Position numbers and translations under genes: made by a program. From assembly GCA_043801155.1 (NCBI GenBank), contig JAZDMI010000021.1, forward strand, positions 2,683 to 66,682: a DNA stretch of 64,000 nt. The letters are read 5' to 3'. This DNA is from Candidatus Gottesmanbacteria bacterium (GTDB lineage Bacteria; Patescibacteriota; Microgenomatia; JAMCYU01). Positions 23,013 to 57,466 of the stretch are shown here, in pieces (positions within the stretch are counted from its first letter, which is position 1; each line of letters starts with the position of its first letter). Under the pieces are notes generated by a model. It searched no databases. It saw only the letters and a list, made by a program, of their open reading frames with translations, and was not told the origin of the DNA.

Positions 23013-23313
23013 ATCCCCACACTAATTTCCTATGTTTTATGTATACATTTTAAAAAGCAAAAAAGATGGAAATTTATACACAGGATCAACCAATGATTTA
23101 AAACGCCGTATTGAAGAACATAATTCAGGTTTAGTTTATTCGACGAAAAACCGAAAGCCATTTAAGTTAATATACTATGAAGCATATAGTGATGAAAGTG
23201 ATGCTAGAAATAGAGAGCACAATTTAAAGTTAAGAGCAAAAGCCCTAGGTCAATTAAAAAGAAGGATAAAGGAAAGTCTATCTAAATAATATAAATATAA
23301 TTAGTGTGGGGAT
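23013..23313 (+). mobile_element. 301-bp GIY-YIG mini-cassette bounded by perfect 15-bp terminal inverted repeats
   Basis: ATCCCCACACTAATT (23013-23027) and its exact reverse complement AATTAGTGTGGGGAT (23299-23313). It fills the gap between the rpsJ stop and the next ATG. Confidence 0.6.
23032..23289 (+). CDS. GIY-YIG nuclease superfamily protein (YhbQ/UPF0213-like)
   Basis: FYVYILKS...GNLYTGSTNDLKRRIEEHN. 85 aa. Confidence 0.8.
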   Translation: MFYVYILKSKKDGNLYTGSTNDLKRRIEEHNSGLVYSTKNRKPFKLIYYEAYSDESDARNREHNLKLRAKALGQLKRRIKESLSK

Positions 23314-23315
23314 AA

Positions 23316-23663
23316 ATGTCTGATATACAAAAATTAACCCAGCAAATTCTAAAATTTCGCAATAAAAGGGATTGGAAGCATTTCCATTATCCTAAGGACA
23401 TGGCCATTTCTTTGGCACTGGAGGCGGCCGAGGTTCTGGAACATTTTCAATGGAAAACCCAGGAAGAAGTTGAAGCGTATCTGAAGACGCATAAAACTCA
23501 TATCGCTGACGAACTGGCCGATGTTTTGTGGTGGGTGCTATTAATGAATCATGATTTGAATATTGATGTGATGAGGGCTTTCGATAAAAAATTAAAAATC
23601 AACGAAGAAAAATATCCGGTTGATAAAGCCAAGGGTACACATAAAAAATATACCGAGTTGTAA
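23316..23663 (+). CDS. MazG-like nucleotide pyrophosphohydrolase
   Basis: LALEAAEVLEHFQW and ELADVLWWVLLM helices with acidic metal ligands. Confidence 0.7.
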   Translation: MSDIQKLTQQILKFRNKRDWKHFHYPKDMAISLALEAAEVLEHFQWKTQEEVEAYLKTHKTHIADELADVLWWVLLMNHDLNIDVMRAFDKKLKINEEKYPVDKAKGTHKKYTEL

Positions 23664-23761
23664 GATGATATCTTTTATTTCTCAATAAATACTCTGACTT
23701 TAACTTCAATATTTGACCTCGGTGTTAAAATAGTAATTATTAGAATTATTAGGAGGCATAT

Positions 23762-23956
23762 ATGAGATATGAAAATAATTGTATGCATCCTGCCATTGTT
23801 TATATTCCGGATCTTAGGCCAGGGTCATATGATGCTAATGGTTTAATGGTTGGGTCACTGAAACATATTCCAAAAGAAAAAATTCAAAAGACAGATGTTT
23901 CAGCTAAATATAGACGAATAGGGCCTCCGATTCGTATTGTTGCCAAAGGGTATTAA
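23762..23956 (+). CDS. hypothetical protein
   Basis: Strong RBS TAGGAGG 7 nt upstream of the ATG. 64 aa. Confidence 0.45.
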   Translation: MRYENNCMHPAIVYIPDLRPGSYDANGLMVGSLKHIPKEKIQKTDVSAKYRRIGPPIRIVAKGY

Positions 23957-23983
23957 ATTATTAATTTTCAATGTCGGCAACAT

Positions 23984-24358
23984 CTACTCTTTGTTTTTTT
24001 CTAATTCGTCTTTAATTTGCGGAGCGATATTATCCAAGAAAATCTGATCAACAAGTTCTTCGGTTATATGAGCTTCTCTTGGCCCAAAATGCTGCATAAA
24101 AACATGATGTTGCCCTATTTTATCCGGACTTAATTGTATTTGACAATAAGTATTGGGGAAGCTGCGGTGGATAAAATTACAAATGATTGTTCCACTTTTA
24201 AGCATAACTGTTTCCCATACAGAAATTTGATTTGGTTTCAAATCTTTATGTTTTGGAACTGGAATATCCTCTCCGACGAGCAGATAAACATCAGGCCAAT
24301 CTAAAGGATTGTACTCATTAAGAGAAATTGGTTGTCTTTCTTGTTTAGAGTTATTCAT
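23984..24358 (-). CDS. hypothetical protein (placed behind the repeated 5' module)
   Basis: 124-aa ORF. Its ATG lies 2 nt after an 11-codon remnant uORF. Confidence 0.5.
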   Translation of the reverse strand: MNNSKQERQPISLNEYNPLDWPDVYLLVGEDIPVPKHKDLKPNQISVWETVMLKSGTIICNFIHRSFPNTYCQIQLSPDKIGQHHVFMQHFGPREAHITEELVDQIFLDNIAPQIKDELEKNKE

Positions 24359-24360
24359 AT

Positions 24361-54923: not shown

Positions 54924-55881
54924 ATTACTGCTTATACTTATAATTCTTATTGCCCTTGTCGGTGGTGTCTCCTTTTATTTTTTATCTCCAGTTGAAAATA
55001 TTAATAAACCAGTCATTTTTACTTTACAAAAAGACGATAATAAACTTGATGCGGCAATAAAACTTAAAGAACAAAAATTAATAAGAAATGTGGCGGTATT
55101 TTCTTTTCTGCTGACGTATTTTGCGGCTGATAAAAAAATACTGCCGGGTGGATATAGGTTAAATTCCAATATGAATGCTTGGCAGGTTATGGAAAAGATT
55201 ACCAAAAAACCTGATTTAGTCTGGGTGGTTATCCGGGAGGGTTTACGCAAAGAACAAGTGGCGATTGTTTTAGCCAAAGCCCTAGGTTGGACAGATAAAC
55301 AAAGAAGTTTATGGCTTGACAACTATACCAGTTCTAATCCTGAATATATTGAAGGTGTTTATTTCCCCGATACCTACCTTATTCCGGTTGATGAAAACGG
55401 CGCTGATATTGTTCGGAGGTTTATCAATAATTTTAATGCCAAAATGGCACCGCTTTTTCCTGAATTTGCTAAAAAGGACATTCTCTGGACTACCGGTATC
55501 AAAATTGCCTCATTAATCCAGCGTGAAGCCGGGGGATCGGCTGATATGCCGATTATTGCCGGAGTGATTTGGAATCGGCTTAATAAGGGAATGAAGCTGG
55601 AAATTGATGCTACGATGCAGTATACCCGGGGTGAACAAAACGATAACTGGTGGGGACCAATAGATCTGGAAGAGAAATTAACGGATTCGCCATATAACAC
55701 TTATCTATACAAAGGTTTACCACCGACGCCGATTTGTAATCCTGGTTTGGAGGCTATTAAAGCAGCCTTAAATCCGGCGGAAACCGACTGTATATTTTAT
55801 TTGCATGATGCTCAAAAACAGATTCATTGTGCCAAAACCTACGAAGAACACAAGAGAAATATCATAGAGTTTCTTAATTAA
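54904..55881 (+). CDS. mltG: endolytic murein transglycosylase MltG/YceG family (copy 2)
   Basis: LASLIQREA, YNTYLYKGLPPTPICNPG. Confidence 0.8.
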   Translation: MMRILLRLLLILIILIALVGGVSFYFLSPVENINKPVIFTLQKDDNKLDAAIKLKEQKLIRNVAVFSFLLTYFAADKKILPGGYRLNSNMNAWQVMEKITKKPDLVWVVIREGLRKEQVAIVLAKALGWTDKQRSLWLDNYTSSNPEYIEGVYFPDTYLIPVDENGADIVRRFINNFNAKMAPLFPEFAKKDILWTTGIKIASLIQREAGGSADMPIIAGVIWNRLNKGMKLEIDATMQYTRGEQNDNWWGPIDLEEKLTDSPYNTYLYKGLPPTPICNPGLEAIKAALNPAETDCIFYLHDAQKQIHCAKTYEEHKRNIIEFLN

Positions 55882-57306
55882 ATGACTTCGTCATATATGG
55901 TAAAATGGGTGTTTGTGAAAAGAGCTATTTTACTCAACCTTTTCCTTTTTGTTTTTGTTTTAAAGCCTGTCTTTGCTTTGGAAAACAATAAATTTGGAAT
56001 TCATATTATTCAGCCGGAAGATCTCCCCCGGGCGGCGGAGCTGGTTAACAGCAATAGCGGTGATTGGGGGTATGTAACAATTGTGATTGCGGATAATGAT
56101 AGGAATAAAGATAAATGGCAAAGTTTTTTTGATGACTGCCGGCAAAAGCATTTAATCCCGCTGGTCAGAATTGCGACACATCTGGAAAATGATATTTGGA
56201 GTAAACCTGAAGAAAATCAGATTAGTGAGTGGGCAAAGTTTCTTGATAGTCTTAATTGGCCGGTTAAAACCCAATATATCAGCATTTATAATGAACCGAA
56301 TCATAACAAAGAATGGGGAGGAAAGTCAGATCCGGTCGAATACGCGAAAATTTTGGATAAAGCGTTAACCATCTTTAAACAAAAAAACAGCAATTTTTAT
56401 ATTCTGAATGCCGGTTTTGATCAAGCTGCCGGTAATTCCCCGACGACTATTGACGAAGAATGGTATATTGCGCAAATGGAAAAAGAAGTCCCGGGTATTT
56501 TTAGCCGTTTAGATGGTTGGGTATCCCATTCTTATCCTAATCATGGTTTTATTGGAAAACCATGGGAGACTGGTCGGGCATCGGTTGCCGGTTACCAATG
56601 GGAACTGTCAATTCTAAAATCTCAGTTTGGCGTGACAAAAAACCTACCAATTTTTATTACCGAGACGGGTTGGCCGCATAGATTAGACAATAGGGTAAAG
56701 GGCATAGGGTATAGTTACTACGATGAAAAGTTAACGGCCGAGTATATAAAACAGGCGTTTGAAAATGTTTGGCTAGCTGATGATCAGGTCATAGCGGTAA
56801 CCCCTTTTATTTTAAATTATCCGGCGTATCCTTTCGAAAACTTTTCCTGGTTGGATAGTAGCGGGCAACCACTTTCTCAATACCAAGAGATTAAATCAAT
56901 TAAAAAAAATATTGGTCAACCGGAACAAAAACAAAGCTTTGCATTAATTAAGTCGCCTTTTCCTCCAATAGTTACCACGAACTTGGTTTTTAACGGCAAA
57001 GTGATATTAAAAAATACCGGTCAGTCAATATGGGGAGAAAAACCATTTATATTAAAGGCCTTTGCTCCCGGTTTAAAGTTATCTGATTTAATCTTGCCTT
57101 CCGGCCAGTTAGTTAAACCCGGGCAAAGAGCGGAACTGGATTTTACTTTGGAGACAGTTAATGTCGGCGGAGATTATGTTGCCGGCTGGCAAGGACTGAC
57201 ACCCTATGAAATTAAAGTTTTTGGTATTTGGGGGTTGACAGCATCGCCAAATACACCCTTAAATAACATCCTCGAAAATATTTTTGGTTTCTGGTTTAAT
57301 CTTTAA
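55882..57306 (+). CDS. secreted TIM-barrel glycoside-hydrolase-like protein (clan GH-A-like)
   Basis: ISIYNEPNHNKEWGG (NEP acid/base) and IFITETGWP (nucleophile). Confidence 0.45.
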   Translation: MTSSYMVKWVFVKRAILLNLFLFVFVLKPVFALENNKFGIHIIQPEDLPRAAELVNSNSGDWGYVTIVIADNDRNKDKWQSFFDDCRQKHLIPLVRIATHLENDIWSKPEENQISEWAKFLDSLNWPVKTQYISIYNEPNHNKEWGGKSDPVEYAKILDKALTIFKQKNSNFYILNAGFDQAAGNSPTTIDEEWYIAQMEKEVPGIFSRLDGWVSHSYPNHGFIGKPWETGRASVAGYQWELSILKSQFGVTKNLPIFITETGWPHRLDNRVKGIGYSYYDEKLTAEYIKQAFENVWLADDQVIAVTPFILNYPAYPFENFSWLDSSGQPLSQYQEIKSIKKNIGQPEQKQSFALIKSPFPPIVTTNLVFNGKVILKNTGQSIWGEKPFILKAFAPGLKLSDLILPSGQLVKPGQRAELDFTLETVNVGGDYVAGWQGLTPYEIKVFGIWGLTASPNTPLNNILENIFGFWFNL

Positions 57307-57312
57307 TACTAT

Positions 57313-57341
57313 TTGCATTTTTTGGGCTCTTGAATTATAAT
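57313..57341 (+). promoter_or_regulatory. consensus promoter for the rplC-led ribosomal protein operon (module J15)
   Basis: TTGCAT-TTTTTGGGCTCTTGAAT-TATAAT. Confidence 0.7.
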
Positions 57342-57415
57342 AAGTGAACTTTGATATGGAGGTGATTTCACCGACAAAAAGTTAGAATAGCGGACTGGCA
57401 CAACGTATTTAGTCT

Positions 57416-57438
57416 AGGTGCAGTCGGCACCTTTTTTT
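57416..57438 (+). terminator. attenuator-like hairpin plus T7 in the rplC leader
   Basis: AGGTGC-agtcg-GCACCT then TTTTTTT. The alternative GGCAC(57426-30)/GTGCC(57439-43) is mutually exclusive with it. Long-range GTGATTTC(57362-69)/GAAATCAC(57445-52). Confidence 0.5.
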
Positions 57439-57466
57439 GTGCCTGAAATCACTTAAACTAAAAAAT

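Follow-up and report, generated by a model that had tools for sequence, protein, structure and literature searches.

How does a bacterium come to carry rpsJ, the gene for ribosomal protein S10, 34.5 kb away from rplC, the gene for L3? The S10-spc-alpha series is among the most conserved gene orders in bacteria, and phylogenies of the candidate phyla radiation (CPR) are built from this series. In a 64,000-nucleotide stretch of a Candidatus Gottesmanbacteria contig (JAZDMI010000021.1, positions 2,683 to 66,682; the window, to which all coordinates refer), the S10 stop codon and the L3 ATG lie 34,454 nt apart with ~45 genes between them, as judged from a list of open reading frames (ORFs) and from Pfam. 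An initial reading of the letters alone (the sequence-only reading) had noticed this distance, and had divided the intervening DNA into an accessory, defence-like part followed by a housekeeping part; Pfam assignments and ORF coordinates bear out the first observation, gene content and composition the second. Here we report that the same split occurs in six genomes of one clade and lies between two predicted transcription units, and we consider it probable that an inherited insertion at this inter-operon boundary was later enlarged by core genes and by a slot in which defence genes turn over.

The left conserved flank consists of tuf (EF-Tu; 21461-22654, plus strand) and, directly after it, rpsJ (22704-23012, plus strand; Pfam E 2e-34), both assigned by Pfam. 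Here rpsJ is the final ribosomal gene of an rpoBC-S12-S7-...-EF-G-EF-Tu-S10 series. The tuf-S10 order was identical in 80 relatives' loci, and the 49-nt spacer between the two genes contains no promoter-like and no terminator-like site. The right conserved flank is rplC (57467-57904, plus strand; 145 aa; Pfam E 1.5e-12), which heads an L3-L4-L23-L2-S19-L22-S3-... cluster; L3, L4, L23 and L2 were assigned by Pfam, and the genes beyond L2 were taken from the ORF series and the gene tables of relatives. S10 and L3 are each single-copy in the window. An L3 pseudogene remnant beside S10 was considered and rejected, as no L3 fragment was found near that gene. The E. coli-type arrangement, an operon of 11 genes headed by rpsJ in which rplC follows at once within one transcription unit, does not occur in the window, and no Rfam family reached its gathering score across the whole window that could represent an L4-responsive leader before rpsJ.

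A scan of GTDB species representatives returned no close relative of this genome (best S10 identity 81%), and the clade was found by protein-database searches with L3 and S10 plus contig look-ups. Five further contigs carry S10 and L3 on one strand and in the same order, separated by 31,173 bp (JBFOMW010000021.1, here R21), 17,333 bp (JBFOMZ010000046.1, R46), 15,703 bp (JBFOMZ010000187.1, R187), ~4.7 kb (JBFOMW010000009.1, R9) and 4,606 nt (JAMCYU010000005.1, L098, from a different study). The window's 34.5 kb is the largest gap seen. Neighbour-joining on nine translation proteins (2,296 columns) resolved the six as ((window, R21), (R46, R187)), (R9, L098), one clade that is sister to the unsplit Gottesmanbacteria. 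Amino-acid identity to the window in translation proteins was 80-84% inside the clade and 64-68% outside it. The presence of six split genomes in one clade indicates that the split is inherited and old, and it is neither phylum-wide nor private to the window genome. A phylum-wide split with conserved content, which the sequence-only reading had named as an outcome that would tell against an integration site, is not what we found.

These contigs also bear on whether the gap could be an assembly artefact, that is, a chimeric join concealing S10 and L3 genes that are really adjacent or that belong to unrelated molecules. Only a single record exists of the contig that contains the window, which leaves this explanation some room. 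However, both genes lie on one strand, 4.6-31 kb apart, in five other contigs, the flank genes are 76-95% identical and collinear, and the junctions at either end of the gap (S10 with a MazG-like gene, and u55882, a 474-aa protein gene, with the rplC leader and L3) recur among relatives, in independent assemblies as well as in those of Logan runs. We regard a chimeric join as extremely improbable. One of the assemblies, GCA_040960625.1, is a mixed bin or a metagenome-level assembly: it holds both R21 contigs (602 kb; L081, L087 and L096) and R9 contigs (788 kb; L083 and L097), each set with its own S10, L3 and DEAD-box helicase genes.

The distance between the two genes was surveyed more widely in 80 loci fetched by S10 from GTDB species representatives, onto which the window proteins were mapped. 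The 26 loci from Chloroflexota and Acidobacteria have S10 and L3 -23 to 151 nt apart, and none of these non-CPR loci carries an insertion at the junction. Among 34 Microgenomates loci (S10 68-81% identical) the distance is 64-318 nt in 26, and in the other 8 the spacer holds 0.5-2.2 kb of unrelated genes, including some that we label, from a reading of the sequences and not from family scans, as AAA-ATPase-like, DinB-like plus Nudix, deformylase-like and secreted unknowns. Other Patescibacteria, mostly Saccharibacteria, have 0.7-8.8 kb at this position in 10 of 14 loci. No surveyed locus comes near 34 kb. The near-universal adjacency of rpsJ and rplC from which the sequence-only reading started is thus the rule in the sampled non-CPR loci but is often broken in Patescibacteria. 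Saccharibacteria with 3-9-kb gaps (L037-L040, L063 and L068) have a small membrane protein of ~83-90 aa with the motif LRIDRKIEYA directly before rplC, and they share other membrane proteins there too; a second, independent conserved split may exist in this group.

What makes this particular boundary open to insertion? Most unsplit Microgenomates have, in the S10-L3 spacer, a promoter-like box right after the S10 stop (TTGAGT-17-TATACT, for example) and a GC-rich hairpin with a T-run that abuts the L3 start. A terminator-like element precedes rplC in 30 of 34 Microgenomates, 3 of 14 other CPR and 0 of 24 Chloroflexota loci, the regions compared not being length-matched. Where relatives carry inserts of 1-2 kb, L3 has kept its leader next to it, and the inserted DNA separates the S10 stop from that leader. 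A predicted promoter of its own and a terminator-type leader at L3, even where L3 is adjacent to S10, mark the S10-L3 junction as an inter-operon boundary, and insertions into its spacer of a few hundred nucleotides would for that reason be tolerated. The sequence-only reading had described the gap as splitting the S10 operon. That description assumes the operon of E. coli; in Microgenomates the break lies between predicted transcription units.

In the window, the rplC promoter and leader occupy 57312-57466 (plus strand), as delineated by pattern matching, an alignment of relatives and a covariance model. The near-consensus promoter claimed for L3 is present as a pattern, TTTGCA-18-TATAAT at 57312-57341, with 10 of 12 consensus matches and conservation in relatives. 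Within the 93-nt conserved leader (57351-57443) are a GGAGGTGAT box and, ~30 nt before the L3 ATG, a terminator-like hairpin, AGGTGCAGTCGGCACCT (57416-57432), with a T-run (T7) after it. This leader is kept in the five relatives, whether u55882, a methyltransferase gene or an MFS transporter gene lies upstream. The covariance model built for it (R1) gave 94-112 bits in the five relatives' contigs, and in L036, an unsplit genome, the S10-L3 spacer scored 33.5 bits (E ~1e-3); the fold of the window leader RNA has z = -2.67. Searches of Rfam gave no match at gathering score in the whole window and only chance-level matches to the leader at E <= 10. Two further pairings were discarded: a long-range helix between GGTGATTTCA and TGAAATCAC in the window leader, which is not conserved in relatives, and a GAGATACTTTGG-CCAAAAGTCTC pairing in unsplit Gottesmanbacteria, whose first element lies inside the promoter spacer and which was dropped as an RNA helix.

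By likeness to the L4-controlled leader of E. coli, we infer that the hairpin may be a regulated attenuator. It is conceivable, though on balance doubtful, that hairpin and T-run are instead a plain terminator of upstream transcription or a stabilising structure, with no role in rplC autoregulation. The stem is invariant in the clade and so offers no covariation, no Rfam family matches it, and the promoter calls are pattern matches, all of which would suit a plain terminator. However, the promoter-like box lies upstream of the hairpin and the T-run only ~5-40 nt from the rplC start, so that rplC transcripts must pass the hairpin. The element travels with rplC and not with the upstream gene, and across Microgenomates the hairpin keeps its position while its sequence changes between at least three classes (ACGACCTC..GAGGTCG, GATAGCC..GGCTATC and GGTGC..GCACC). 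Furthermore, the RNAalifold consensus pairs GACTGGCAC with GTGCAGTC, an alternative that excludes the terminator and that shows two compensatory changes, both from L093, one of the five sequences.

The start of the leader (57351-57385) carries a box, GATATGGAGGTGAT, that is invariant in the window, L081, L083, L085 and L093. GGAGGTGAT complements the 3' end of the 16S perfectly, and the box opens a possible 9-codon upstream ORF (MEVISPTKS-stop) whose length and frame agree in all five. This candidate ORF has no Shine-Dalgarno sequence of its own, and its conservation could equally be at the RNA level. Boxes resembling ATGGAGGTGA are found in the rplC leaders of L007, L024, L029, L032 and L036.

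We compared the contents of the gap among the split genomes. A MazG-like pyrophosphohydrolase gene (23316-23663, plus strand; Pfam E 4e-19; 76-78% identical in relatives) is the sole gap gene found on the downstream side of S10 in all six. Towards L3, genes for the DEAD-box helicase, MltG and u51405 lie in the gap of all four long-gap genomes (window, R21, R187 and R46), Obg in that of the window, R21 and R187, a Zn-ribbon protein in that of the window, R21 and R46, and PpiB in that of the window and R21. A minus-strand LCP gene and a homologue of u55882 stand before L3 in the window, R21, R9 and L098. Small genes of the left arm (u23984, u25199/u25620 and a GNAT gene) are patchily common to the relatives, and a DUF8173 gene that follows MazG in R21, R46 and R187 has been lost from the window.

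Between the MazG-side and DEAD-side flanks, the four long-gap genomes carry non-homologous defence cargo. The window has a cluster, identified by Pfam and PADLOC, of Type I restriction-modification (R-M), Mrr-like, Fic, NYN and Cas4-like PD-(D/E)XK genes. R21, the closest relative, carries a methyltransferase, MutH, SduA_C, SIR2, GmrSD and a second methyltransferase, and its ~17.6 kb from MazG to the Zn-ribbon gene have nothing in common with 23.7-43.6 kb of the window. The cargo of R46 comprises two methyltransferases, a PvuII-like nuclease, a LexA-like gene and Prok-E2/ThiF, and that of R187 an EcoRI-type methyltransferase and GmrSD/HNH. Conserved flanks around wholly different cargo are the signature of a variable defence slot, and the suggestion that the junction had become an integration hotspot agrees well with these four genomes. 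The comparison also refined that suggestion: the middle of the gap is variable, but part of the content that had been taken as inserted (the MazG-like, LCP, u55882, DEAD-box, Obg, MltG, u51405, Zn-ribbon and PpiB genes) is conserved.

Base composition follows the same division. Between 23 and 43 kb GC content is 0.31-0.37, lower than in the flanks, and the 4-mer L1 distance is 0.22-0.31 versus 0.14-0.21 in the flanking core, with the lowest GC and the most deviant 4-mers in 34131-43606. The 44-57 kb part, with distances of 0.16-0.22, is core-like. The compositional segmentation of 23-57 kb that had been proposed as a check therefore separates a deviant left part from a core-like right part.

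This deviation raises the question of whether one recent integration of a mobile element at the rpsJ stop, be it an integrative and conjugative element, a prophage or a GIY-YIG homing cassette, made the whole gap. Right after the S10 stop, the S10-MazG spacer of the window contains a GIY-YIG mini-cassette of ~300 bp (23013-23313, plus strand) with an 85-aa ORF (23032-23289, plus strand; Pfam PF01541 E 1.5e-18). It is enclosed by a perfect 15-bp inverted repeat, ATCCCCACACTAATT (23013-23027) and AATTAGTGTGGGGAT (23299-23313), that extends to 31 nt at 77% complementarity. A related GIY-YIG copy beside a duplicated tRNA 5' end elsewhere suggests that such cassettes move. However, the relatives are split without the cassette, and the MazG-like gene to its right is a conserved neighbour of S10 in all six genomes. 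For about half of the genes in the gap, relatives have orthologues inside their own gaps. The GIY-YIG protein is a catalytic domain (residues 1-70 of 85) with no other domain detected by Pfam or PADLOC, and so lacks the linked DNA-binding domain that gives homing endonucleases of the I-TevI/Seg type their target specificity. We found no integrase, recombinase, transposase or phage-type protein among the ~45 gap proteins (Pfam; the unknowns also by PHROGs) and no tRNA in the window, and a scan of 22.6-58 kb for long flanking, att-like direct repeats returned nothing beyond short promoter-like boxes and a single paralogous upstream region of 85 nt. A single mobile-element integration as the source of the whole gap is thus highly unlikely.

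The cassette itself is absent from all five relatives, a presence/absence polymorphism at an exact site between collinear genes. In R21, R9 and R187 3-14 nt separate S10 from MazG, in L098 ~50 nt, and R46 has another gene where the window has GIY-YIG; the left repeat arm of the cassette resembles the 14-nt spacer of R187. The GIY-YIG insertion is a late, separate and recent event that did not create the split. The cassette had been placed at the left breakpoint of the gap; instead it is an insertion found in the window only, and the variable region starts further to the right, after MazG and a few small genes. A 54%-identical, uncalled GIY-YIG copy lies in an R9 contig (L097, 1720-2120), between a duplicated tRNA 5' part and the intact tRNA and beside an extra GC-rich hairpin. 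This suggests that small GIY-YIG cassettes are mobile and form a family in these genomes.

The right arm of the gap (43687-57306, mixed strands; Pfam) has core-like composition and begins with EngB, DUF192 (minus strand), Obg (minus), DEAD-box helicase, B12-radical SAM and GH-like genes. These are followed by the triple Zn-ribbon protein (minus), u50935, u51405, u52319 (minus) and LCP (minus), and then by cyclophilin (PpiB), u54483, MltG and u55882. EngB, Obg and the DEAD-box helicase come from families known for ribosome-assembly factors, and their position beside the ribosomal-protein cluster may be no accident.

Such a set of core genes (EngB, Obg, DEAD, MltG, LCP and PpiB) is also what one would expect if mainly a chromosomal rearrangement, and not stepwise insertion, had moved the rplC cluster beside a pre-existing block. 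Right-arm order and orientation vary among relatives, Obg and DEAD being divergent in the window and convergent in two relatives, so that inversions or transpositions also happened, and local inversions clearly occurred. In the short-gap genome R9 the DEAD homologue is ~54 kb from L3 in a different context, meaning that right-arm core genes were either recruited in the long-gap lineage or lost in the short-gap one. However, S10 and L3 have the same order and strand and are 4.6-34.5 kb apart in all six genomes, which a simple inversion or translocation would not yield. Two genomes keep a minimal 4.6-kb version, and in other Patescibacteria small inserts have entered this spacer many times independently, which points to insertion as the common route. 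We therefore think it unlikely that rearrangement was the principal cause.

The explanation that we favour is insertion at an inter-operon boundary. In this account rpsJ would end the tuf unit, and rplC...rplF would make up a second unit that has a sigma-70-like promoter and a terminator-type leader to itself; insertions that fall after the rpsJ stop and before the rplC promoter would disrupt neither. In the ancestor of the subclade the boundary would have gained the MazG-like gene, joined to rpsJ, together with LCP and the 470-aa protein next to the rplC promoter, a state that may survive as the ~4.6-kb gap of two genomes. The gap of a daughter lineage would then have taken up the DEAD-box helicase, Obg, MltG, u51405 and the Zn-ribbon protein, with EngB and PpiB probably gained in some of its members. 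The middle would have become a hypervariable slot exchanging R-M and other defence genes, most likely via homologous recombination in the conserved flanks after DNA uptake.

Several points weigh against this account. The tree is a neighbour-joining tree without bootstrap, and the short gap could be ancestral or secondarily reduced. Every relative is a metagenome-assembled genome or a metagenome contig, and the presence of two clade genomes in GCA_040960625.1 shows that binning is imperfect. The order of the right arm varies between genomes, as described above. For the leader, the promoter and terminator calls are pattern matches only, and the antiterminator pairing draws both of its compensatory pairs from the same single sequence.

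Breaks in this part of the genome are known from other bacteria. In Gammaproteobacteria and Bacilli, most breaks of the rpoBC-str-S10-spc-alpha operon cluster start with genes inserting into inter-operon regions, after which the parts move further apart (Brandis 2021, PMC8046335), and many of the inserts consist of ordinary chromosomal genes (PMC8046335; Brandis et al. 2019, PMC6735719). The window resembles these cases in having a multigene insertion at an inter-operon region of the translation cluster. However, the boundary there is tuf/rpsJ (str/S10) and here it is rpsJ/rplC, one gene further, and the gap in the window contains a hypervariable defence slot and belongs to a patescibacterial lineage. 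In cyanobacteria and plastids the str operon includes rps10, placed after tufA and apart from the rpl3 cluster. The window shares with that layout an S10 gene that stays with tuf and an rpl3... cluster that is a separate unit, but in this unrelated lineage S10 and L3 are collinear on the same strand, 5-35 kb apart, with variable content between them.

Defence islands and hotspots between conserved core genes are known from Proteobacteria. The gap is like them in its conserved flanks, its deviant composition and its cargo that varies between relatives. Unlike them, it lies inside a ribosomal-protein series, has core genes mixed in, has no mobility gene that we could find and belongs to an ultra-small CPR host. 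The leader has a counterpart of sorts in the E. coli S10-operon leader, which works by L4-mediated transcription attenuation (Lindahl and Zengel; reviewed in PMC3616713), the L4-controlled S10 leader RNA being restricted to Gammaproteobacteria (PMC3616713). Both have a predicted terminator hairpin directly before the first gene of the operon that contains L3 and L4. In contrast, the leader described here precedes rplC and not rpsJ, and it has no sequence or Rfam similarity to the E. coli leader. We tentatively suggest, as a possibility that we would not rate highly, that Microgenomates moved the control point for ribosomal proteins from rpsJ to rplC through undescribed attenuator leaders of one family or of several structural classes, likely sensing L4 or L3, and that the spacer then became a lineage-wide landing site and, in one clade, a defence slot without a mobility gene.

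Insertional breaks of the translation-gene cluster, defence hotspots with conserved flanks on either side and attenuators in the leaders of ribosomal-protein operons are thus already known. New here are the boundary, which is rpsJ/rplC and not tuf/rpsJ, the phylum, and a defence slot within the ribosomal series together with an uncurated leader; the locus is a lineage-specific variant of known genome behaviour and no new type of system. If our account is true, the insertional decay of operon clusters also affects one more boundary and one more phylum, and rpsJ/rplC is a routinely occupied boundary in Patescibacteria that in one clade became an inherited, expandable gap. An occupied boundary means that S10 can sit tens of kb from the other markers, which bears on binning and marker extraction. 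The defence repertoires of CPR bacteria are poorly known, and the gap would offer a flank-defined site for cataloguing the turnover of their defence genes. The uncurated rplC leaders would, likewise, be candidate autoregulators of ribosomal proteins.

The variable part of the window begins with a semi-conserved left arm (23984-27577, mixed strands; Pfam, PADLOC). It contains u23984 (from 23984, minus strand; 57% identical in R46), NYN (24551-25057; found in the window only), the minus-strand paralogues u25199 (40% identical in R187) and u25620, Fic (26184-27056; PADLOC models PDC-S04/SoFic; window only) and GNAT (27107-27577; 81% identical in R187). The 85-nt direct repeat returned by the repeat scan (24367-24451 and 25953-26037, 88% identical) spans the upstream regions and starts of u23984 and u25620.

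The left arm is followed by the Type I R-M operon (27624-33972, plus strand; Pfam, PADLOC), in which HsdM, HsdS and HsdR stand together in one cluster, as is diagnostic of Type I R-M. It consists of hsdM (27624-29099; Pfam N6_Mtase 1.5e-65, with HsdM_N), an ORF of 212 aa that overlaps both of its neighbours (29092-29730), hsdS (29727-30884; Methylase_S 1.5e-44; two target-recognition domains), an ORF of 239 aa (30887-31606) and hsdR (31618-33972; ResIII/Helicase_C/EcoEI_R_C; PADLOC REase_I 2.8e-130), all on the plus strand. The two interleaved ORFs have no Pfam, PADLOC or PHROGs match, and the operon has no counterpart in the gap of any of the five relatives. From its translation, HsdR has a Cys-rich insert at residues ~545-600 that separates the helicase core from the EcoEI_R_C domain and includes three repeats of the form CP(x)C...PC(x)C, namely ICPKCNQDPCICE, VCPICGQRPCICI and ICPICGKFPCECE.

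Window-specific cargo fills 34131-43606 (mixed strands; Pfam, PADLOC, PHROGs). Here we found genes for Nudix (34459), an Mrr-like nuclease (35299), DUF6498 (35868), the Cas4-like PD-(D/E)XK nuclease (36647), DegV (37872, minus strand), an unknown protein of 694 aa (39379, minus strand) and an ArsM/UbiE-like S-adenosylmethionine-dependent methyltransferase (42455), as well as small unknowns. Apart from a weak 26% match to the PD-(D/E)XK nuclease, these genes are not common to the relatives' gaps. PADLOC gave no match for the GIY-YIG protein, the two ORFs of the R-M operon, DUF6498 or the 694-aa protein, and PHROGs returned nothing usable for ten unknown ORFs. A ~29-nt promoter-like box, TTGCMTTTT...TGATYTAAACT, is repeated before many small island genes (33964, 34932, 34967, 35261, 35820, 36594, 37548, 37838, 38903 and 41510). 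It combines a TTGCAT-like -35 with TAAACT, TAGACT or TATAAT as -10, and rplC is preceded by a box of the same design (57313). These repeated boxes imply that the island genes carry host-style promoters.

In the right arm, the Zn-ribbon protein (50345-50878, minus strand; 177 aa) is a stand-alone protein with three topoisomerase-I-type Zn-ribbon repeats. It is 84-85% identical in R21 and R46, which equals EF-G and exceeds its neighbours, and this conservation points to a possibly important role.

L3 itself is short in the window: its 145 aa lack ~59 residues of the N-terminal domain (~27-85) of a 204-aa Gottesmanbacteria homologue. Among the best 120 database homologues 43 have an L3 of <=170 aa, which indicates a truncation across an entire clade. 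L3 is short in two unsplit genomes as well, L007 (164 aa) and L048 (144 aa), and truncation and split are therefore independent of each other.

The str series is interrupted as well. Pilin-like (minus strand), PGA_cap and P-type ATPase genes lie between S7 and EF-G in the window (14700-19121). R21 has all three, R187 has the ATPase at the same junction, and in R9 and L098 an ATPase is directly upstream of EF-G, with S7 off-locus. The insert in R46 consists of DUF3160 and Memo/PGA_cap, and in many other Microgenomates EF-G and EF-Tu are 4-6 kb apart.

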